Part shown: piece by piece, positions 740 through 11,143 of the stretch
Layout: each line of letters opens with the position of its first letter
Numbering within the stretch: position 1 is the stretch's first letter
The notes under the pieces: generated by a model
Told to the model about the DNA's origin: nothing
What the model saw: only the letters and a program-made list of their open reading frames with translations
Database searches by the model: none
Program-made: the position numbers and the translations under genes
Virus genome (UHGV): UHGV-0105484
DNA from: a virus
DNA: 11,143 nt
Direction: 5' to 3' (one strand)

Positions 740-1129
740 TCAGGCGGCTGCACCCGCCGTTTTCTCGTACTTACTGATAGTGATCTCGACCTTCCCTTCC
801 GGGATAACCGGTCCCCACTCCACCAGCATTCTTTTCACCTGACTGTCGTCTTCCCACACCCCCGCGTGGGTCAGGGCGTCAAACAGCGCCTTGTTATAGT
901 TGTCCAGATCGCGGATCCTGTTATCCGGAGGAAACAACACGATCTCCACTGAAGCAGGTGCCGACGTTGGTTTCGGCAGACGACGTAACTGTTCAACTAT
1001 TGCTGCGCACGCCGCGCTCTGAAATTTTCGCCCCGCCGCGCTTATCAGGCTCTTACCTGCAAACGCCCCTTTGTTGGGGTGTCGCCAGTACGTGTTCACG
1101 CTGGGCGGGAAAGGCAGGATCAGCTTCAT
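740..1129 (-). CDS. rusA: RusA-family Holliday junction resolvase
   Basis: 129 aa; motifs LPFPPSVNTYWRH and RIRDLDNYNKALFDALTHAGVWEDDSQV align with RusA (LPWPPSNNRYYRH ... [28 protein letters not shown]). Start ATG overlaps the upstream stop (ATGA). Confidence 0.85.
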   Translation of the reverse strand: MKLILPFPPSVNTYWRHPNKGAFAGKSLISAAGRKFQSAACAAIVEQLRRLPKPTSAPASVEIVLFPPDNRIRDLDNYNKALFDALTHAGVWEDDSQVKRMLVEWGPVIPEGKVEITISKYEKTAGAAA

Positions 1130-1452
1130 ACTTTCAGGCCCCTCTTATGTAACCAGTGGGTTGCACGCAGCCTGGCGTTTTCCTCACCGGCAAGCAGTGA
1201 GCGGATAATCCCGACCGCCTCGCTGTCGTCGTCCTTCACCGCGGTATGAAGCGTGATGCCCCGGGCCACGCCACGCTTTATCGTGATGACGCCTTTTTTC
1301 TCCAGTGCGCGAAGATGCTCCACCGCTGCATTCACTGAACGGTATCCCAGCATGGTTGCCACCTCCTGATTGGTTGGCGGGAAGCCACGTTCTTTCTGAT
1401 AAGAAATCAGCATATCCAGCACCTGCTGCTGGCATTGAGTTAACGTCGTCAT
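1126..1452 (-). CDS. LexA N-terminal DNA-binding-domain protein (no S24 peptidase domain)
   Basis: 108 aa from ATG 1452 (the track's 1485 start is GTG). MTTLTQCQQQVLDMLISYQKERGFPPTNQEVATMLGYRSVNAAVEHLRALEKKGVITIKRGVARGITL aligns with the LexA DNA-binding domain ([69 protein letters not shown]). Start overlaps upstream stop (TAATG). Confidence 0.6.
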   Translation of the reverse strand: MTTLTQCQQQVLDMLISYQKERGFPPTNQEVATMLGYRSVNAAVEHLRALEKKGVITIKRGVARGITLHTAVKDDDSEAVGIIRSLLAGEENARLRATHWLHKRGLKV

Positions 1453-1940
1453 TACGCCCCCACGTAATTCCCTGACAGATACCACTCATCACTCGATACA
1501 GCGCGCTTGCTGCTTTTCCGTAAACACAGCTCACGACGCGCCAGAAATTTGTTTCGTTCTGGCTGGGAGTGGCTTTCACGGAATGCCGCCATCCACACGG
1601 TTGCAGCACGACGGTATAAGCCCCTGGACTCCAGTTCTTCAGCCTGGCGGGTCAGGCACAAAATCACCCGTGGATCGTTAGTGCCGACATAGAAATTGCG
1701 CACAGGTCTGGTTTCTCGAACTGGTTGTGGTTCTGGTTCCTGCGCTCTCTCAGTCAGGCGCGGGAAATGTCTGCGTGTATCTCCTTCACAACGGTGAGCC
1801 ACACGCCCACTCTGACGTAACTTGCTTGCAGACTGCAGAACGCGCTGCCGTGAGTAACCTGCAAAAGCATCCGCAATGTCTCCGGAAGTACACCCCGGAT
1901 GGGCTTCAATGAATTTCTGAACGTCATTTAACAGACTCAT
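1452..1940 (-). CDS. Hypothetical phage protein, N-terminal winged-helix-like region and C-terminal ANR/PerC-like motif
   Basis: 162 aa from ATG 1940 (track start 1946 is GTG). C-terminal segment LTRQAEELESRGLYRRAATVWMAAFRES...ERNKFLARRELCL resembles the small ANR/PerC regulator pattern. Tightly packed between the replication gene and the LexA-like gene. Confidence 0.45.
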   Translation of the reverse strand: MSLLNDVQKFIEAHPGCTSGDIADAFAGYSRQRVLQSASKLRQSGRVAHRCEGDTRRHFPRLTERAQEPEPQPVRETRPVRNFYVGTNDPRVILCLTRQAEELESRGLYRRAATVWMAAFRESHSQPERNKFLARRELCLRKSSKRAVSSDEWYLSGNYVGA

Positions 1941-1942
1941 GA

Positions 1943-2884
1943 TCACCCTCTGAATCCTGCCGGGATCTGGCTGTAGTCCACGTTGTCGTAACTGGCTTTG
2001 AAGTACGGGTCCTCGCGTTTTTCGGTGTACGTGCTGACGGACGGCGATAAGCGCAGGGAAAGCTCATCCCATTTTTCCCGCAGCTTCGACGGGCTGAGCA
2101 CGTTACGGCACCAGAACGGATCGCGGCTGACGCGGCTGTACATCTCGCAGATTTGTTTGTGAGTACGCCCATCCTGTACACACATCAGGCGAATTTCGTT
2201 TGCCCAGGCTGTCCAGTTCGGTTCTTTGGGACGAACCACCTCGCCGTCACATTCGGCAGCCTGCTCGTACAGGGCGATGATTTTTTTCCAGAGCCACTGT
2301 GCGCAGGTCAAATCATCCTGCGTCCCCCACTGGCGCTTTTTAGGGCTGAATACAACCGCATTAGGATGGCGAGTTAAAAAATCCTGTTCAGCCGTCTGCG
2401 TGTCCGGTTGCGAAGCGTCCGGACGAGAAGGTTTTTTATCTGACGGATCATGTTTTGATTTTACTGACGGATCCCCGCCAGATTCTGACGGGTGAAAACC
2501 CGCTTTTTTGCCAGATTTCGACGCATCAAATTTTGACGGGTCAGATTTTGATGCGTCAGATTTTGACGGGTCAGAATCTGACAGTTGAGAAAATGCCGCT
2601 GCCTGAAGCTTCGCAACGTTAAGCTGATAAACATTCGACGCATTGCGGTTACCCTGGCGACGCGCCTTACGCGTTAACCAGCCTTCTGCTTCCAGCCGTG
2701 CGATAGCCGTTCTGACGGTACTCATCCCCGCGCCAATCTGACGGGCAATGGTTTCAATTGATGGCCAGCACACACCTTCGTCATTACTGAAATCAGCCAG
2801 GCGGGCCATAATTGCCACGCTGGATAACTTCATGCCTGATGCAGCGCAACCATCCCATACATAGCCGGTTAATTTAGTGCTCAT
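1943..2884 (-). CDS. Phage replication initiator (lambda O-like; N-terminal HTH, acidic Ser/Asp/Lys repeat linker)
   Basis: 313 aa; SD AGAGG 7 nt upstream of ATG 2884. N-terminus VWDGCAASGMKLSSVAIMARLADFSNDEGVCWPSIETIARQIGAGMSTVRTAIARLEAEGWL is a replication-initiator type HTH. The central SDSDPSKSDASKSDPSKFDASKS repeat is encoded by tandem DNA iterons. Sits after the cII-like gene as O does in lambda. Confidence 0.75.
   Translation of the reverse strand: MSTKLTGYVWDGCAASGMKLSSVAIMARLADFSNDEGVCWPSIETIARQIGAGMSTVRTAIARLEAEGWLTRKARRQGNRNASNVYQLNVAKLQAAAFSQLSDSDPSKSDASKSDPSKFDASKSGKKAGFHPSESGGDPSVKSKHDPSDKKPSRPDASQPDTQTAEQDFLTRHPNAVVFSPKKRQWGTQDDLTCAQWLWKKIIALYEQAAECDGEVVRPKEPNWTAWANEIRLMCVQDGRTHKQICEMYSRVSRDPFWCRNVLSPSKLREKWDELSLRLSPSVSTYTEKREDPYFKASYDNVDYSQIPAGFRG
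2438..2590. repeat. Iteron array inside the replication initiator gene (candidate phage origin of replication)
   Basis: About 8 copies of core TGACGGRTC. 2516-2590 holds five tandem 15-bp units (tttcgacgcatcaaa / ttttgacgggtcaga / ttttgatgcgtcaga / ttttgacgggtcaga / atctgacagttgaga); further copies at about 2441, 2465 and 2485. Units have internal dyad symmetry (tctgac..gtcaga). Analogous to lambda ori iterons inside gene O. Confidence 0.6.
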
Positions 2885-2893
2885 GACCGACCT

Positions 2894-3232
2894 CTATTTC
2901 CCTGAATTTACGACGAAACTGTTCGAGCGGACTGAAGCATTCATGCTCATAACCTTCGCGGAGGTAGATAACCCGTTGTGTTTCCGGCTCCCAACGAATG
3001 ACTCTGACGGGCACTCCGTAGTGATCTTTGAACCAGCGGTTAACTTGTCGCAAAGGACTGTCTCCTTCTGCCGGTTGAAATCACCCACAGCCCACTCTGC
3101 AAAGCTGTGGGTTACAATTTCCCTGTCACCTGGTACATTCACTGCATAGCAATATTCCACCTTCGCTTTTCCACCCGGTAAAGGAAGCGCAATCAGTTGC
3201 GAGCGACGGTAGTGTGTTGTTAAACTGTTCAT
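2894..3232 (-). CDS. Hypothetical protein (uncertain ORF between cII-like and replication genes)
   Basis: 112-aa ORF whose ATG (3232-3230) overlaps the upstream stop (ATGA). Composition is not strongly protein-like and no recognisable motif; kept at low confidence. Confidence 0.3.
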
Positions 3233-3798
3233 GCGTTAGTTTCTCCACAACCAGAAGCAATCGACGCCACGACGCCCGGAGCTGCACACTCGCGGGCGTC
3301 ATTACTTTCTGAAATGCAAAAAATTTTGTAGACAAGTGCTGCATGCTCCTGCAGCTTCGAAATTGAGAGATACAGCTCGTCGTTAATTGCTGTCTTCTCA
3401 TGCGGTTCCACTACACCGTCTTCGATTGCTGAACGAATCTGTTTTGAATAACTGCCGATCTGTTCAATGACTTCCAGCAGACGCTGGTTAATATCGGCGT
3501 TGTCCACATCCTCGACGTCAGGAAGAGACACAAAGACGCCATTTGCAGACTGCGCCACAGCATCAGCAATGAAGTGAGTGCCACCAGCACGCTGTAAAAC
3601 CATTGCCCATCCCAGCGGGAAAATCTGATCGCCATCTGCACGAAGGCGGTTGAATAAAGCGTTTTCTGTTACATCGAGCCAGTCAGCCGCTTCAGCGTAA
3701 CCACCCGGCAACGCCGCGATAGTTTTTCTGACAGCTTTCACGTACCACTCAGGCTGTTTTTCTATTTTCCAGTGATGCTTACCCACGATTAGCCTCAT
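3229..3798 (-). CDS. CII-like phage regulatory protein
   Basis: 189-aa ORF immediately downstream of the cro-like gene on the same strand, the lambda cII position. ATG 3798 lacks an SD; an in-frame GTG 12 nt downstream is preceded by GAGG and may be the true start. Family assignment by position and general resemblance only. Confidence 0.5.
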
Positions 3799-3829: not shown

Positions 3830-4030
3830 CTAATCTTTCGGATAGATATCCGGTCTTAAGTCAGATTTCGTAATTGCACCTGACGTGCATTGCTCAAGTT
3901 TTTTAGCCAGCACAAAACTGGCTTTTTTATAGCCATTGAAAACCAGCCGTAAGTAGCCAGATGTTGAGCCAACTTTTCCGGCCAACTCGCCCTGCTGTTC
4001 TTTGGTTAAAGAGTCCCAATACGCTTTCAT
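3830..4030 (-). CDS. Cro-like HTH regulator (YdaS/Cro type)
   Basis: 66 aa from ATG 4030, with strong SD GGAGG 11 nt upstream. MKAYWDSLTKEQQGELAGKVGSTSGYLRLVFNGYKKASFVLAKKLEQCTSGAITKSDLRPD has an HTH pattern. Divergent from the cI-like gene. The track's longer 167-aa ORF is an upstream extension without support. Confidence 0.6.
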   Translation of the reverse strand: MKAYWDSLTKEQQGELAGKVGSTSGYLRLVFNGYKKASFVLAKKLEQCTSGAITKSDLRPDIYPKD

Positions 4031-4120
4031 ACAATATGTACCTCCGGTGTACATATTACATGATTGAAATGAACCTTCAAGATACTTGTACCTTAACGGT
4101 ACAAGAGTTTTAATTTCGTT
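4031..4120. promoter_or_regulatory. Immunity switch region: divergent promoters and palindromic operators between cro-like and cI-like genes
   Basis: Two dyad sites share a GTACC/GGTAC core: 4034-4056 (atatgtac-ctccggt-gtacatat) and 4085-4105 (cttgtacc-ttaac-ggtacaag). Minus-strand candidate promoter TTGAAG-16-TAATAT precedes cro. Plus-strand candidate TTGTAC-17-TTTAAT ends about 7 nt before the cI ATG, which has no SD, suggesting a leaderless cI transcript as at lambda pRM. Confidence 0.5.
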
Positions 4121-4795
4121 ATGAAAACAATCCATGACATCCGGCGGTCTAACGCCAGAAAACTGAGAGATGGTGTTGGCGGGAATTCTTCCTTTGCCAC
4201 TATGATTGATCGCGAGCCAACCCAGACCAGCAGGTTTATGGGAGATGGTGCTACTAAAAATATCGGTGACAGCATGGCACGACACATCGAAAAATGTTTC
4301 GACCTGCCTGTCGGATGGCTCGATCAAGAACACCAGACAACGAACATCACAAAAAAACCTGATGTTTCAATCACTAATAAACAAATCACATTAGTCCCTG
4401 TCATATCATGGGTACAGGCCGGAGCATGGAAAGAAGTTGGATATTCTGAGGTTGATTTGAGCACAGCAGAAACGTATCCCTGCCCTGTACCCTGTGGGGA
4501 AATGACTTATATCTTGCGGGTGATAGGTGATTCAATGATTGATGAGTACCGCCCGGGAGACATGATTTTTGTCGATCCTGAAGTACCTGCCTGCCACGGT
4601 GACGACGTTATTGCATTGATGCACGATACAGGTGAAACCACCTTCAAAAGGTTGATAGAAGATGGGACACAGCGTTATCTCAAAGCGTTAAACCCAAACT
4701 GGCCTGAGCCTTACATTAAGATCAACGGTAATTGCTCTATAATTGGTACAGTGATTTTCTCAGGAAAACCAAGAAGATACAAAATCAAAGCCTAA
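4121..4795 (+). CDS. CI-like prophage repressor, HTH plus S24 (LexA-like) autopeptidase domain
   Basis: 224 aa; N-terminal HTH region; candidate Ala-Gly cleavage site (VQAGAW); catalytic Ser in GDSM and Lys in FKRL. Divergently arranged with the cro-like gene. Confidence 0.85.
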   Translation: MKTIHDIRRSNARKLRDGVGGNSSFATMIDREPTQTSRFMGDGATKNIGDSMARHIEKCFDLPVGWLDQEHQTTNITKKPDVSITNKQITLVPVISWVQAGAWKEVGYSEVDLSTAETYPCPVPCGEMTYILRVIGDSMIDEYRPGDMIFVDPEVPACHGDDVIALMHDTGETTFKRLIEDGTQRYLKALNPNWPEPYIKINGNCSIIGTVIFSGKPRRYKIKA

Positions 4796-5236: not shown

Positions 5237-5642
5237 GATCCCATTCATTTTCGTCAAAATCATCAAAGTGATGAATTTGTGATCTCCAGTCTCGATAATC
5301 TAAAAATTTCTGGGCGGTTACGCTTATTTTATCAAGCGTGAGTTCATCCTGAATTGAAAGAAGAAGTTCATCAAATTTCATCTCATTAATCTGTTTTGGC
5401 ATCCAGTGATGCTTCATCAGAATAAGGTGAACCAGAGCTTTTTTCCCATTCAACTGATTATAGGGAGTGCCGAATTTCTTCCGGTGCTCATGTAAGACAA
5501 GGTCCAGAAGAGTAAGTAATGTTGCCCTTGATTCAACTTTGCTTATTTCGACTGATGACACTACCCCACTGATTTCAATGCCCCGATACTTTCCAACATT
5601 TTCACAGTGGGATTTGTACAGCGTATAGATATTACCGGACAT
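5208..5642 (-). CDS. Hypothetical protein (144 aa), AT-rich accessory gene convergent with the 68-aa ORF
   Basis: ATG 5642 with SD AAGGA about 7 nt upstream. Soluble, no recognised motif. AT-rich relative to flanks. Its 3' end overlaps the 68-aa ORF by 29 bp. Confidence 0.5.
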   Translation of the reverse strand: MSGNIYTLYKSHCENVGKYRGIEISGVVSSVEISKVESRATLLTLLDLVLHEHRKKFGTPYNQLNGKKALVHLILMKHHWMPKQINEMKFDELLLSIQDELTLDKISVTAQKFLDYRDWRSQIHHFDDFDENEWDPNLSAQYLK

Positions 5643-5657
5643 TTCTTTTCCTTTTGC

Positions 5658-5709
5658 GTTGTTGGGGATAACCAGATTAACCGAATCCTTGTTGTTGGGG
5701 AATAACCAG
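5658..5709. repeat. Two direct repeats (18/19 bp) upstream of the 144-aa gene
   Basis: gttgttggggataaccag (5658-5675) and gttgttggggaataaccag (5691-5709), identical except for one inserted A, 33 bp apart, just upstream of the minus-strand SD/ATG at 5642. Confidence 0.55.
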
Positions 5710-6059
5710 GTCCACCTCGCCTGATGTGGCTAAAAGCAGGCACATAACAGCTAAGTATTTTCAACCAGAGAGAATTCTTAGCGTTGTGGTGAATGCGGCT
5801 CAGCGCACGCGGGTTAAGGTTGAGGCTGACAGTCGACCTTCTGTGGATACCCACCCGCCTGGTGTGCAACCTTCGCCAGGCACCGGGAGGCACCCGGCAC
5901 CACAACTTTATGCTGTGTTTTTACAAAACAGAGAAGAGCATCACCGGACGACGGGCTCATAACCCAATCCATCCGGGCGGCTGCCACCGCAGGTGTTCTT
6001 CTCTATTTTGTGGAGAAACTAATCGGCCTTGCAGGGTCGATATGATGAGGAGCAGCAAA

Positions 6060-6422
6060 ATGGCTAGCGAACGCAGTACTGATGTGCAGGCATTTATCGG
6101 GGAGCTGGACGGCGGCGTATTTGAAACCAAAATCGGCGCAGTTCTCAGTGAAGTCGCTTCCGGTGTGATGAACACGAAAACCAAAGGTAAGGTCTCGCTC
6201 AACCTGGAAATCGAACCGTTTGATGAGAACCGTGTGAAAATCAAACACAAACTCTCATATGTTCGCCCGACTAACCGCGGGAAAATTTCCGAAGAAGACA
6301 CCACCGAAACGCCGATGTATGTCAATCGCGGTGGTCGCCTGACTATTCTGCAGGAAGACCAGGGACAATTACTGACTCTTGCCGGTGAACCTGACGGAAA
6401 ACTCCGCGCAGCAGGTCATTAA
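6060..6422 (+). CDS. yfdP: YfdP-like phage protein (120 aa)
   Basis: ATG 6060 with SD GAGGAG 8 nt upstream. Length and position immediately upstream of the yfdQ- and yfdR-like genes match the CPS-53 yfdP-yfdQ-yfdR order. The track's 209-aa ORF is a non-protein-like 5' extension. Confidence 0.55.
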   Translation: MASERSTDVQAFIGELDGGVFETKIGAVLSEVASGVMNTKTKGKVSLNLEIEPFDENRVKIKHKLSYVRPTNRGKISEEDTTETPMYVNRGGRLTILQEDQGQLLTLAGEPDGKLRAAGH

Positions 6423-6487: not shown

Positions 6488-7312
6488 ATGTCTCAGAACT
6501 TAGACGCAACCGCAATTAATCAAATCCATGCCCTTATTTCTGCTCAGGGTGTTAATGAAATTATCAGTAAGATTGGTGCCGATGCTGTGGCATTGCCTGA
6601 GAATTTCCGCATTCATGATCTGGAAAAATTTAATTTAAATCGCTTCCGTTTCCGTGGTGCGCTTTCCACTGCCAGCATCGATGACTTTACCCGTTATTCT
6701 AAAGATCTTGCAGATGAAGGCACCCGCTGCTTTATCGATGCCGATAATATGCGAGCCGTCAGTGTGCTTAACCTGGGTACTATTGATGAACCAGGTCACG
6801 CAGATAACACCGCCACCCTCAAACTGAAAAAGACAGCACCGTTTTCTGCTCTGTTGTCTGTTAATGGCGAGCGTAACTCCCAGAAGTCACTGGCAGAATG
6901 GATTGAAGACTGGGCCGACTACCTTGTGGGCTTTGATGCTAATGGTGACACCATTCAGGCAACCAAAGCGGCTGCGGCAGTCCGTAAAATCACAATTGAA
7001 GCAAACCAGACCGCTGATTTTGAAGACAATGACTTCAGCGGCAAACGCTCCCTGATGGAGTCTGTCGAAGCGAAAACCAAAGACATTATGCCAGTGGCAT
7101 TTGAATTTAAATGCGTTCCGTTTGAAGGCCTGAAAGAACGTCCGTTTAAATTACGCCTCAGCATTATCACTGGCGATCGTCCTGTACTGGTTCTGCGCAT
7201 TATTCAGCTGGAAGCAGTGCAGGAAGAAATGGCTAACGAATTTCGTGATCTGCTTGTTGAGAAATTCAAAGACAGCAAAGTAGAAACCTTTATTGGTACT
7301 TTCACCGCCTGA
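6488..7312 (+). CDS. yfdQ: YfdQ-like protein (DUF2303 family), 274 aa
   Basis: Complete ORF with SD GTGAGGA upstream of ATG 6488. Length (274 aa) and the sequence as recalled fit E. coli prophage YfdQ. Confidence 0.7.
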
Positions 7313-7346: not shown

Positions 7347-7439
7347 ATGGAAACGTAATTAACTCAATAATCGCCGGATGGTGAGGGCTTCCTTTTACCA
7401 GAATTCAGCGCGGTGCAGCGCATATACGTGGAGAACAAA

Positions 7440-7988
7440 ATGTCATTTATTAAAACTTTTTCCGGGAAGCATTTTTATTATGACAGGATAAATAAAGACG
7501 ACATCGTTATTAACGATATCGCGGTTTCTCTTTCAAATATCTGTCGCTTTGCAGGACATCTTTCACATTTCTACAGCGTCGCCCAACATGCAGTTCTTTG
7601 AAGCCAGCTGGTTCCGCAGGAATTTGCTTTTGAAGCATTAATGCATGATGCAACAGAAGCGTATTGCCAGGACATCCCCGCGCCACTGAAACGCCTTCTT
7701 CCTGACTATAAACGGATGGAAGAAAAAATAGACGCCGTAATCCGTGAGAAATACGGGTTACCCCCGGTTATGAGCACGCCCGTGAAATATGCCGATCTCA
7801 TCATGCTGGCAACCGAACGCCGCGATCTCGGGCTTGATGATGGCTCTTTCTGGCCTGTGCTGGAAGGTATCCCGGCAACAGAGATGTTCAACGTGATTCC
7901 ACTGGCACCGGGCCATGCCTACGGGATGTTTATGGAACGCTTTAAAGAGCTGCATAAGATACATAAACAATCCAGACAGCGAAATTAA
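7440..7988 (+). pseudogene. yfdR: YfdR-like HD-domain 5'-deoxynucleotidase interrupted by an in-frame TGA (codon 54, 7599-7601)
   Basis: ORFs 7413..7601 and 7641..7988 are in the same frame and together read MSFIKTFSGKHFYYD...FAGHLSHFYSVAQHAVL-[TGA]-SQLVPQEFAFEALMHDATEAY..., about 182 codons against about 178 aa for YfdR. The first fragment carries His residues and the second the HD dyad. Real ATG is 7440 (7413 is GTG). Confidence 0.65.
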
Positions 7989-8031
7989 CTAGTGAAATAG
8001 TTTTGTAGCAAAAGAAATGAGGTTATCAAAA

Positions 8032-8277
8032 ATGCTTCAAATGCTGACACTTGAGGAATGGGCTGCGGAAAAATTTAGGAGTAATCCTCCAAGTGTGTCC
8101 ACATTGCGTCGTTATGCTAAGCAGAATTTATTTTGTCCACCGGCAATGAAACAAGGTCGACTATGGCGAGTGCGTGAGGACGCAGAGTTAGTTGGGGAAT
8201 TAGTTACTCCTGTCATCAAGAAAAGTGATTCTATTATTCTACAAAGGATTTTAAGTAATGGCAGCCAGACCACGTAA
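8032..8277 (+). CDS. xis: Excisionase (lambda Xis family)
   Basis: MLQMLTLEEWAAEKFRSNPPSVSTLRRYAKQNLFCPPAMKQGRLWRVREDAELV... parallels lambda Xis (MYLTLQEWNARQRRPRSLETVRRWVRECRIFPPPVKDGREYLFHESAVKV). 3' end overlaps int by 20 nt, as in lambda. Alternative in-frame ATGs at 8017 and 8041. Confidence 0.8.
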   Translation: MLQMLTLEEWAAEKFRSNPPSVSTLRRYAKQNLFCPPAMKQGRLWRVREDAELVGELVTPVIKKSDSIILQRILSNGSQTT

Positions 8278-9385
8278 AAATAATGTTTCAGTCCCGAACT
8301 TGTATCCGCTCTATAGCAGAAAAGTAAATAAAGTCTATTGGCGATATAAGCATCCAGTGACCGGGAAGTTTCATTCTTTGGGCACAAACGAAGCTGAAGC
8401 CATTGCTATTGCCACTGAGGCCAATACACGCCTAGCTGAGCAAAGAACCCGGCAGATTCTGGCTATCAGTGACAGGATCGCAACCAGCAAAGGAAAAGCA
8501 ATCACAACGTCAACCTGGTTAGATCGCTATCAAGCAATCCAAGATGACAGACTGAAAAGTGGCGATATAAAGCTCAATACCTATAAACAGAAAGCCAAAC
8601 CAGTATCCTTGCTCAGGGAACGAGCAGGAATGAAGTTTATTTCATCCGTTGATGTAAGGGATATCGCACAATTGCTTGACGAGTATATCACCGCCGGGCA
8701 ACCGAGGATGGCGCAAGTAGTCCGCTCCGTTCTAATTGATGTATTCAAGGAGGCACAACACTATGGGGAAGTCCCTCCGGGCTATAATCCAGCACTGGCA
8801 ACCAAACAACCCAGAAGAAAAATTACCCGACAACGGTTAAGTCTTGAAGAATGGCAAAAAATCTTTGATATTGCAGATGCCAGTCATCGTTATATGGGGA
8901 ATGCCATGCTGTTAGCACTGGTTACCGCCCAGCGGTTAGGTGATATCTCACGTATGAAATTTAGCGATATTTGGGATGATCATCTTCACGTCATCCAAGA
9001 AAAAACAGGGAGCAAAATCGCCATCCCACTTTCCCTTCGCCTCAATGCGATTAACTGGAGTTTACGCGATGTAATAGCCCGCTGCCGTGACTATGCAGTC
9101 AGCCCATACCTGGTGCATTTTTTCCGTTCAACTTCACAAGCAGAACGTGGGGCACAGGTTAAATCCAATACATTGACGACGAATTTCAGTAAAGCGAGGG
9201 ATTTGGCAGAAATCGACTGGGGTGATGGCACACCCGCAACATTCCATGAACAAAGGTCTTTATCTGAGCGACTTTACGAAGCTCAGGGTGTCGACACCCA
9301 AAAACTTCTGGGGCATAAATCGCCTAATCAAACCGCTCGCTACCACGATGATCGCGGAAAGGAATGGATAAAGATTCAAAACTAG
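8258..9385 (+). CDS. int: Lambda-family tyrosine integrase
   Basis: 375 aa. N-terminus has an arm-binding-type region (PNLYPLYSRKVNKVYWRYKHPVTGKFHSLG). C-terminal catalytic motifs: Arg in TAQRLGD, HEQRSLSERLY (His-x-x-Arg box) and LLGHKSPNQTARYHDDRGKEW (Tyr nucleophile). Confidence 0.9.
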   Translation: MAARPRKNNVSVPNLYPLYSRKVNKVYWRYKHPVTGKFHSLGTNEAEAIAIATEANTRLAEQRTRQILAISDRIATSKGKAITTSTWLDRYQAIQDDRLKSGDIKLNTYKQKAKPVSLLRERAGMKFISSVDVRDIAQLLDEYITAGQPRMAQVVRSVLIDVFKEAQHYGEVPPGYNPALATKQPRRKITRQRLSLEEWQKIFDIADASHRYMGNAMLLALVTAQRLGDISRMKFSDIWDDHLHVIQEKTGSKIAIPLSLRLNAINWSLRDVIARCRDYAVSPYLVHFFRSTSQAERGAQVKSNTLTTNFSKARDLAEIDWGDGTPATFHEQRSLSERLYEAQGVDTQKLLGHKSPNQTARYHDDRGKEWIKIQN

Positions 9386-9398
9386 CGTAATTTATTTG

Positions 9399-9827
9399 TT
9401 AATTTCTAATAGACAAAAGGACTATTTGAATAACAATAAATATAATTTGTATTAAAGTTACAACTGCAAGAGTTAATGTAAGCGATGCGATAAAGTAGGT
9501 TTTAATACTTGAAAGACAAAGCAATGATAATAAAAGAGTAATACCAAGTTGAATAAAGCATACAAAATAAAAGATCATTGCGCCCTGTAAATATCCGTGT
9601 GCCCTAAATCTTTGTATGTTAGCATTATCTAAAGAAGTTAATATGACAATAAGAGCAAAAATGAGCGCCATCATTGCTGTCGCATACGATGCTAAAGCTG
9701 AACCAAGACCATCTAGATGTTCTTTGAAATTTACCCCCGGTAGAATATCATAGCGATATTTGTACACGCCAAAGCCAATAGCGTTTGTCATAATCGTTAA
9801 AACCACGGGGGGAAACCATTTAATCAT
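9399..9827 (-). CDS. RexB-like small integral membrane protein (4 predicted TM helices)
   Basis: 142 aa from ATG 9827, which lies 1 nt after the upstream stop (TGAnATG); the track's longer start is 9857. Four hydrophobic segments. Motif LPGVNFKEHLDGLGSALASYATAMMALIFAL matches lambda RexB as recalled (IPGVSFSAHRDGLGATLSSYAGTMIAIL); size matches RexB (144 aa). AT-rich. Confidence 0.6.
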   Translation of the reverse strand: MIKWFPPVVLTIMTNAIGFGVYKYRYDILPGVNFKEHLDGLGSALASYATAMMALIFALIVILTSLDNANIQRFRAHGYLQGAMIFYFVCFIQLGITLLLSLLCLSSIKTYFIASLTLTLAVVTLIQIIFIVIQIVLLSIRN

Positions 9828-9828
9828 T

Positions 9829-10644
9829 TCAGTATCCAGCAGCCCTAAGATCTGCATTATTAATAAAGTTAGTTACCATTTGGCTCTCTATAGATATATT
9901 TGCGTTTTTATTGACTATATCATAGATGCCACCCGTTGTCGCGACATGAAGCTCAATCGCTTGGTCTCCTAGCGCTTGCTTCGCCGCTATTGTCATTTCA
10001 CGGATACCTGCTGGTAAGTTGTTTAATGTTGGACTAATGGTATCCTTAATGTTTTTAAGATGTTTTGGTTTAATAGTAATTTCAAAACTGTCTACATCAT
10101 TAAGATCAACAGCTGTTATACCAAGAAAATTTGTCATCTCCCTTAACGCGAAAGGAGAATTAGGTTCTAATTTTACATTGATTTTCCCCATATGTGCATA
10201 CTGCAATGCCTGGGCTGGCGTAACAGTTTTCTTGATGGGCTCAAATCTTATATTTCTATTGTTATTCGTATTAAAGAAAAAGTTGTCATAATATTTACCA
10301 AAAGAGCCAATTTTGGGACCAAAGAGAGTCGAGCCATACCCTACACAACGATTAGAAATGTAAATATATGAGGCAAAAGCAACGTCCTGATTTTGTTGCA
10401 GCAATGCCGTAATGTCCTGGTAGTTGTTATTAACTCTATCGATGGTTTTTATAATGTCTGTATTATTTGTTTTTAAAAACATAAATACATCACCCAATAT
10501 ATGATGTATCGAGTAATACGAACCATCTAACCTAACTGTTTGTGTGTTGCTCTGAATGAGTTGCAGAAAAGAAGAGCTAAGAGAACTCGCAAGAGGTTGC
10601 CCGTTTTGCGGATAAAGATCATATTTGTAATAATTCGTTTTCAT
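9829..10644 (-). CDS. RexA-like soluble protein (271 aa)
   Basis: Complete ORF from ATG 10644 in a roughly 30% GC island. Size and position (upstream of and coupled to the membrane gene) match lambda RexA (279 aa). Recalled RexA motifs have counterparts: Y-x-Y-I-H, F-x-F-x-KTN (FMFLKTNN), T-x-FGP (STLFGP), I-x-IKPK (EITIKPK). Not confirmed by database search. Confidence 0.6.
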   Translation of the reverse strand: MKTNYYKYDLYPQNGQPLASSLSSSFLQLIQSNTQTVRLDGSYYSIHHILGDVFMFLKTNNTDIIKTIDRVNNNYQDITALLQQNQDVAFASYIYISNRCVGYGSTLFGPKIGSFGKYYDNFFFNTNNNRNIRFEPIKKTVTPAQALQYAHMGKINVKLEPNSPFALREMTNFLGITAVDLNDVDSFEITIKPKHLKNIKDTISPTLNNLPAGIREMTIAAKQALGDQAIELHVATTGGIYDIVNKNANISIESQMVTNFINNADLRAAGY

Positions 10645-10811: not shown

Positions 10812-11143
10812 TTACATATTTTCGATGATCGCATCACCAAACTCTGAACATTTCAGCAGTTTAGCGCCTTCCATCAAACGTTCGAAGTCATAGGTTACGG
10901 TCTTCGCATTGATTGCGCCTTCCATACCTTTAACAATCAGGTCTGCGGCTTCGGTCCAACCCATGTGGCGTAACATCATCTCAGCAGAGAGAATAATAGA
11001 GCCTGGGTTAACTTTGTCCTGACCGGCATATTTCGGCGCAGTACCGTGGGTAGCTTCAAACAGGGCGCATTCGTCACCGATGTTTGCGCCAGGGGCGATA
11101 CCGATACCGCCAACCTGCGCTGCCAGGGCGTCAGAAATGTAGT
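10812..11143 (-). CDS. icd: Isocitrate dehydrogenase (NADP), C-terminal fragment; prophage attachment target
   Basis: Minus-strand translation reads ...[96 protein letters not shown], the enterobacterial Icd C-terminus. Host-like GC content, unlike the adjacent AT-rich island. Confidence 0.95.

Follow-up and report, generated by a model that had tools for sequence, protein, structure and literature searches.

The SOS response controls mutagenesis, persistence, prophage induction and the release of toxins or colicins. LexA dimerises through its C-terminal domain. Under the LexA two-hybrid principle the LexA DNA-binding domain represses only once a dimerising partner has been attached to it (PMC12430536). 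The concept of a phage regulator made up solely of LexA's DNA-binding domain is already published: gp6 of the Bacillus tectivirus GIL01 is a truncated LexA homologue that binds GaCACAn nTGTGaC, at a site which overlaps the -35 element, and activates the late promoter P3 (PMC6182141). We analyse here a LexA-like gene in UHGV virus genome UHGV-0105484; "the window" denotes the whole stretch of 11,143 nucleotides (nt) that was analysed. The original prediction, made from the letters alone, held that this gene specifies a LexA DNA-binding domain lacking the autoprotease, which could occupy SOS boxes as a non-inducible repressor or act as a partner of host LexA.

A LexA N-terminal domain without the S24 peptidase

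The gene and its parts are as follows.

1126–1452, minus strand: LexA-like gene, 108 amino acids (aa), PHROG 362; ATG start, stop codon at 1126–1128
1246–1452, minus strand: LexA-type winged helix-turn-helix, codons 1–69 (PF01726 covers 1–65; AlphaFold2; Foldseek)
1297–1335, minus strand: recognition helix VNAAVEHLRALEK, codons 40–52, with S39 directly before it; S39, N41, A42 and E45 kept
1129–1245, minus strand: family-specific tail, codons 70–108, a proposed dimerisation module (family conservation, dN/dS, AlphaFold2)

In the list of open reading frames (ORFs) of the window the gene runs from ATG through 108 codons to its stop. A GTG-started alternative (1126–1485) would give 119 aa; MTTLT is the N-terminus of all homologues, which favours the ATG. 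This ATG shares a base with the TAA that ends the PerC gene upstream (TAATG), and a Shine-Dalgarno-like GGGGG run lies a few bases 5' of it.

The product was recognised by Pfam LexA_DNA_bind [PF01726; E=2.9e-19, 69 bits against a gathering threshold of 23.7 bits] over the whole model (1–65 of 65), and among PDB sequences the DNA-binding domain of E. coli LexA matches it best [1lea; E=6.9e-16]. A BLASTP comparison with full-length E. coli LexA gave 43% identity over 90 aa (residues 1–90), while the S24 part of LexA (residues 87–202) stayed unaligned. The claimed kinship with the LexA N-terminal domain is thereby borne out, including its recognition region, in which RSVNAAVEHL (aa 38–47) is identical to LexA at 8 of 10 positions. 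The NCBIfam equivalog for lexA [TIGR00498] aligned over positions 1–91 of its 203 with 70.7 bits, below the curated cut-off of 110.95 bits, which leaves the protein outside LexA proper.

Structural modelling gave the same picture. Two AlphaFold2 runs, one with 12 close homologues and the other with 13 sequences down to 38% identity, agree with each other at a predicted local distance difference test (pLDDT) score of 79 and 84, respectively. The domain is predicted to comprise helices at 6–22, 28–35 and 40–52 and a two-strand wing (56–58 and 66–68), the RGI motif of which (R64, G65, I66) is invariant across the family. Compared by Foldseek with chain B of the LexA-DNA complex [3jso_B], residues 1–68 of the model superpose over 67 columns with a root-mean-square deviation of 1.0 Å and 51% identity; the alignment and modelling proposed as a check of the original prediction thus return the LexA fold.

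The second half of LexA is missing. Neither Pfam nor NCBIfam scans detected an S24 peptidase domain in the 108-aa product, and there was no match to PF00717, which the same Pfam scan did find in the neighbouring CI repressor (4121–4795). The region that carries the catalytic Ser119/Lys156 dyad of LexA is lacking, since the protein stops at residue 108. RecA-stimulated self-cleavage is therefore impossible for this protein, as had been argued from the sequence, and domain searches confirm the product as a protease-less homologue of the LexA N-terminal domain.

Distribution, selection and the C-terminal tail

An identical protein occurs on 730 public contigs under the name "LexA family transcriptional regulator"; in RefSeq it is the "LexA family protein" WP_000210164.1, and it is 99% identical to orf42 of SfV. 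The match to PHROG 362 ("transcriptional repressor") is full-length [residues 1–108 against model 1–106 of 106; E=1.3e-59], as are those of two further subfamilies, here called the P0128 type (~45% identical to the window type) and the P0138 type (~41%). Proteins with 94–99% identity are found in about 50 phage records, among them mEp460 (gp46), cdtI, SfII, SfIV, Ayreon and many Stx2a and Stx2c phages, where they are named "LexA-like protein", "LexA DNA binding domain protein" or "transcriptional repressor". The gene is present in 2233 of 5426 complete E. coli genomes (41%), in up to 4 copies per genome, and is intact in 2223 of them.

Closer homologous proteins come from Citrobacter and Hafnia, further matches from phages of Shigella, Hafnia and Edwardsiella, and distant members of the same architecture from Salmonella, Cronobacter, Kosakonia, Enterobacter, Cedecea and Klebsiella. 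Across the seven genera of the cluster look-up (Escherichia and these last six) the length is steady at about 106–108 aa and the tail is kept down to 40% identity. As a sequence finding the gene is ordinary and not new: it already has an annotation and a place in the PHROG catalogue, and thousands of genomes carry it. Our literature search found no functional or experimental study of this enterobacterial LexA-like family.

Both parts of the protein are under purifying selection. The ratio of nonsynonymous to synonymous substitution rates (dN/dS; Nei-Gojobori, loci from IMG/VR) is 0.017 for the winged helix (aa 1–69) and 0.147 for the tail (aa 70 to the end) in the window type, and 0.20 and 0.19, respectively, in the P0128 type. 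One might take a gene from which two thirds of LexA is missing for a decaying, functionless remnant of a captured lexA, the more so as the prophage shows other damage, namely a split yfdR gene and a neighbouring ORF whose counterpart in the closest relative carries a frameshift annotation. Selection on both parts argues that the gene is not a decaying lexA fragment; with dN/dS of 0.017–0.2 over domain and tail, intact copies in so many E. coli genomes, and a constant length and conserved tail across seven genera, we regard this explanation as effectively refuted.

The 39-aa tail, which the original prediction passed over, is modelled as a low-confidence linker (aa 71–74) with helices at 72–88 and 93–103, and pLDDT reaches about 90 over aa 81–100. 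The predicted template modelling score is low (0.53–0.57), so that the placement of the hairpin relative to the DNA-binding domain is not fixed by the models. The pattern EAVxxIRxLLAxExxARxRAxxxLxxxG is retained down to about 40% identity, with A97 and L101 invariant. A search of the tail profile against PDB and Pfam at E<=10 returned noise only, and we reject an assignment of the tail to a known domain. Because the dimerisation domain of LexA is missing and the tail is conserved, the helical hairpin is the obvious candidate for a replacement dimerisation module and its likely substitute.

The tail also has a bearing on the origin of the gene. In the alignment its LLA-GEE segment falls opposite VAA|GEP, where LexA cleaves itself, and Ala88-Gly89 opposite Ala84-Gly85. 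SLLAG (aa 85–89, window 1186–1200), followed by EE, resembles a relic of an ancestral lexA.

A role in protein contacts might be considered here, with the product serving as a decoy or pseudo-substrate for S24 proteases (host LexA, phage CI, UmuD) or for RecA filaments, or as an accessory factor of RusA. LexA homology does reach the cleavage-site region (alignment to LexA residues 70–86, and up to position 91 of the TIGR00498 model), where Ala-Gly occupies the corresponding place, and the tail is conserved while matching no known fold. Yet the dipeptide is not kept in the wider family, where ER, TR, SG, DD or AE take its place, and the segment is modelled as a helix, unlike the strand-loop of LexA. 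Furthermore, the winged helix with its DNA contacts is the most constrained part of the protein. We consider such a role improbable.

DNA contacts and SOS boxes

A review dealing with the crystal structure of LexA on DNA attributes the main CTGT contacts to S39, N41, A42 and E45 (PMC11442139); an older list adds E44 (PMC3091678). All four residues of the review are present in the LexA-like protein. Relative to E. coli LexA, P40 and E44 are replaced by Val and R28 by Asn. An exhaustive representative search showed position 44 to be Glu in 11 of 13 full-length LexA matches, while position 45 varies among E, D, Q and S. Conservation of the recognition residues, on which the original prediction had staked its case, therefore holds for S39, N41, A42 and E45 and fails at E44. 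The evidence on specificity is mixed as judged from these alignments: the core CTGT contacts are kept in the subfamily of the window, and a hallmark residue is altered family-wide.

No exact CTGT-N8-ACAG occurs anywhere in the window, in agreement with the original prediction. Boxes with one mismatch number 7 against 3.5 expected, a count reached by 15 of 200 shuffles and not significant. We also scored the window with a 20-bp position weight matrix (PWM) built from an ad hoc set of E. coli SOS operators; the best score, 11.5 at position 5389 inside an ORF, lies below that of the weakest training box (12.6). Neither the one-mismatch nor the PWM candidates are credible.

The CTGT-N11-ACAG palindrome to which attention had been drawn does exist, at 5913–5931, and proves irrelevant. 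Exact CTGT-Nx-ACAG with spacings of 0–20 was found 5 times against about 2.6 expected from shuffles, a chance-level count, and the N11 form turned up in none of the 198 related loci; among these is the 98%-identical closest relative, in which the stretch corresponds by position to a frameshifted hypothetical gene. We reject it as an operator of variant spacing. A scan for palindromic half-sites (4-mer arms, spacers of 4–12) through the 198 loci found none shared by the three subfamilies; CTGT-N8 alone stood out, in the P0138 type only. Dereplication of these loci was imperfect, and the scan is uninformative.

These results bear on the possibility that the protein is a transcription factor private to the phage, its operator having diverged, similar in kind to gp6, and that it would act as repressor or activator on a palindrome of its own and might time, for example, Q, late or moron genes. 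The loss of E44 throughout the family and the variable positions 43–45 suggest diversifying specificity; gp6 itself is a precedent, the window holds no SOS box, and the PHROG and RefSeq names are merely generic. Against this, no candidate operator emerged from the half-site scan, the window-type gene lacks an intergenic region from which it could regulate itself, and the crystal-structure contacts to CTGT are all retained. We regard a diverged operator as the main alternative, a serious, if doubtful, possibility.

Elsewhere in the family SOS boxes are plentiful. Near the gene, window-type loci have 63 strong boxes where resampling predicts about 5, and P0138-type loci have 46 where it predicts about 2; owing to the relatedness of the loci these counts are not independent. 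In SfV, mEp460, cdtI and Stx2c phages a strong box (TACTGTAAAAATAAACAGTG; PWM 22.5) lies within codons 3–9 of a DNA methylase gene (SfV orf48) that is situated downstream of Q, between Q and the holin gene (box at SfV 34170–34189, mEp460 24597). This module occurs in 29 phage records, and the LexA-like gene accompanies it in at least 27 of them (28 if a partial homologue in Klebsiella phage Kp4866-6 is included); of 50 carriers of the LexA-like gene about 22 are without it. We reject this co-occurrence as a functional link, as the two are separated by about 4 kb within a single mosaic block of near-identical phages. In mEp460 there are five strong boxes in 28 kb overall, including tandem boxes at 6831 and 6859 at the dinI promoter and a very strong one (score 25.8; 15546–15565) inside the coding region annotated for the CI-like repressor gp38.

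In the P0138 type (Cedecea, Enterobacter and Klebsiella phages) a canonical SOS box stands upstream in 29 of the 29 loci that have a 67-aa ORF. This box (TACTGTTTATTTATACAGTA) overlaps a promoter -10 element 437–1864 nt upstream of the LexA-like gene and heads an operon of a DinI homologue (about 20 loci; Pfam E=8e-22), a conserved PHROG 1813 ORF and the LexA-like gene, with no terminator between them, as at 5297–6327 of locus L177 and likewise in L165–L191 and L198. The ORF upstream of the P0138-type genes was considered as a split-off S24 remnant and rejected: it has no Pfam match and hits only PHROG 1813, a family of unknown function. Since an identical box sequence is paired with different recognition helices (NAAAEH, NAVALH), the P0138-type boxes are best read as host-LexA sites.

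Operon context, proposed role and known systems

The other features of the window are the following.

740–1129, minus strand: RusA Holliday-junction resolvase gene (Pfam PF05866); 4-nt overlap between its start and the LexA-like stop
1452–1946, minus strand: PerC-family gene, next in the upstream direction; 1-nt overlap between its stop and the LexA-like ATG
1943–2884, minus strand: replication initiator (HTH_36, Pfam) with internal iteron-like repeats; marks the early rightward operon
3229–3798: CII-like gene
3830–4795, no single strand: immunity region with Cro-like gene, operator palindromes and CI; presumed control point of operon transcription
3830–4051, minus strand: Cro-like gene of the immunity region
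4027–4105: operator palindromes of the immunity region
4121–4795, plus strand: CI repressor with S24 peptidase domain (Pfam)
8017–9385: intE/xisE
10812–10979: 3' end of icd, last 55 codons

The sequence identifies the window as the early part of an SfV-like lambdoid prophage that has icd as its insertion site. Stop-to-start overlaps join the replication gene to PerC (4 nt), PerC to the LexA-like gene (1 nt) and the latter to RusA (4 nt); the LexA-like gene is therefore read as a member of the early operon and its product as delayed-early. It lies in the nin region and would be a lytic gene, presumably silent in the stable lysogen. The order of replication genes, LexA-like gene and then resolvase, DUF968 or Q is seen in the window, SfV, mEp460 and mEp390.

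Judging from the overlaps the LexA-like gene is translationally coupled to PerC on its upstream side and to rusA on its downstream side. The next gene is RusA in all 81 window-type and all 78 P0128-type loci, and also in mEp390. So absolute a coupling in two subfamilies (159/159) would suit an accessory factor of RusA. In the P0138 type, on the other hand, a 67-aa ORF comes next, and only then a RusA-like or DUF968 gene. Lambdoid phages are mosaic, and gene order in the nin region is often positional rather than functional, which counts against a RusA partner.

We tentatively favour, with somewhat less than even confidence, a RecA-insensitive dimeric repressor of LexA-box-like sites. The early rightward promoter would drive the LexA-like gene together with the replication, PerC and RusA genes, and would do so only after the prophage CI repressor had been removed. 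Its product would form a homodimer through the C-terminal helical hairpin in place of the C-terminal domain of LexA, and S39, N41, A42 and E45 would read LexA-box-like palindromes with CTGT-type half-sites. SOS-box promoters of the host chromosome, or of the phage and co-resident elements, could then be held repressed while host LexA is cleaved, the protein acting as an uncleavable LexA surrogate during lytic growth.

This dimeric repressor is preferred because of the LexA fold, the absence of the protease, the four retained contacts, the invariant RGI and the selection on both parts of the protein. A DNA-binding domain followed by a flexible linker and an alpha-hairpin fits the rule that the LexA domain needs a dimerising partner (PMC12430536). 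The box in 29 of 29 loci together with DinI, another SOS damper, in the P0138-type operons places the family in an SOS-related theme, and we count the neighbourhoods rich in SOS boxes in its favour, related as the loci are.

Several points weigh on the other side. The window has no credible SOS box, and the matrix used to look for one derives from an ad hoc operator set. Among the tail-bearing relatives examined position 44 is never Glu (V, A, F, T, L, Y); the family as a whole departs here from LexA at a hallmark position, and some members have lost E45 as well (NAVALH, NTVFIH, NTIAGH). The sole characterised phage protein of this kind, GIL01 gp6, has its own site and is an activator. Dimerisation by the tail is no more than an inference. 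Finally, the P0138-type boxes are best explained as evidence of SOS-inducible expression and of the DinI theme rather than of binding by the phage protein.

A more specific version, that the protein is a natural uncleavable LexA which re-imposes repression of the SOS regulon after prophage induction or infection, strikes us as rather unlikely. Its targets might be the phage's own SOS-controlled genes (for example the SfV-like methylase box), rival prophages or plasmids, and it might be one arm of phage SOS shut-off modules to which related phages add DinI under an SOS-box promoter. The other half of the original proposal, partnership with host LexA, is unlikely, as LexA dimerises via the C-terminal domain that is missing here.

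If SOS-box binding were true, many E. coli, Shigella and Shiga-toxin phages would carry a LexA substitute which RecA cannot remove, and the timing of the SOS response during induction could be reshaped, including that of Stx2-converting phages. Such a layer of SOS control would be both widespread and overlooked, the gene being in 41% of the complete E. coli genomes. Should the protein instead have its own target, it would be the second independent phage capture of LexA's DNA-binding domain as a private regulator, after GIL01 gp6.

Some further features of the prophage deserve mention. The last 55 codons of icd, with intE and xisE, place the prophage at the icd attachment site, the one used by e14 and phage 21-type elements, while the early region is SfV-like. 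Iteron-like direct and inverted repeats of the GTCAGATTTTGAC type at 2455–2640 fall within the gene of the replication initiator, where the protein has a repetitive SDPSKSDASKSDPSKFDASKS stretch, and probably mark the phage replication origin. Between the integrase and the 3' end of icd (9399–10644, minus strand) lie homologues of RexA (271 aa; PADLOC E=1e-103) and RexB (152 aa; E=5e-55), a Rex-type abortive-infection pair that forms AT-rich cargo where the prophage ends; in the RefSeq record of the closest relative their equivalents are only "hypothetical proteins". A yfdR-type 5'-deoxynucleotidase is split into two ORFs (7413–7601 and 7641–7988), where relative L001 has a single coding sequence of 549 bp (~182 aa), which suggests a disrupting mutation.

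How, then, does the LexA-like protein compare with known systems? It belongs to the PHROG 362 family by its full-length match, its 94–99% identity to phage members and its position upstream of RusA. A 654-bp dam gene stands between PerC and the LexA-like gene in most relatives (SfV, mEp460, the closest E. coli relative); it is missing from the window, as from SfIV, and the protein itself is no different.

With E. coli LexA [1lea, 3jso] it shares the winged helix, at 51% identity over 67–68 residues, with S39, N41, A42, E45 and RGI. Unlike LexA it has no S24 peptidase and dimerisation domain, and hence no LexA-type dimer interface, and it bears a 39-aa two-helix tail that LexA lacks. LexA is autoregulated from a chromosomal locus, whereas the LexA-like gene sits in a prophage early operon.

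Like GIL01 gp6, it is phage-encoded, consists essentially of a LexA DNA-binding domain without protease, and is an early product of a phage with a biology bound up with the SOS response. In contrast, gp6 has 66 aa and no helical tail, activates transcription, and belongs to a tectivirus rather than a lambdoid phage, with another gene context. BLASTP of gp6 against the LexA-like protein gave no alignment at E<=100, and we reject homology between the two. With no similarity in sequence, gp6 is best seen as an analogue and not a relative, the two having been acquired independently from Gram-positive and enterobacterial LexA, respectively. The engineered LexA two-hybrid fusions (PMC12430536) resemble the LexA-like protein in that an attached dimerising module turns the DNA-binding domain into a functional repressor; they differ in being artificial and in having the wild-type recognition helix, and for the phage tail the dimerising role is a candidate one.

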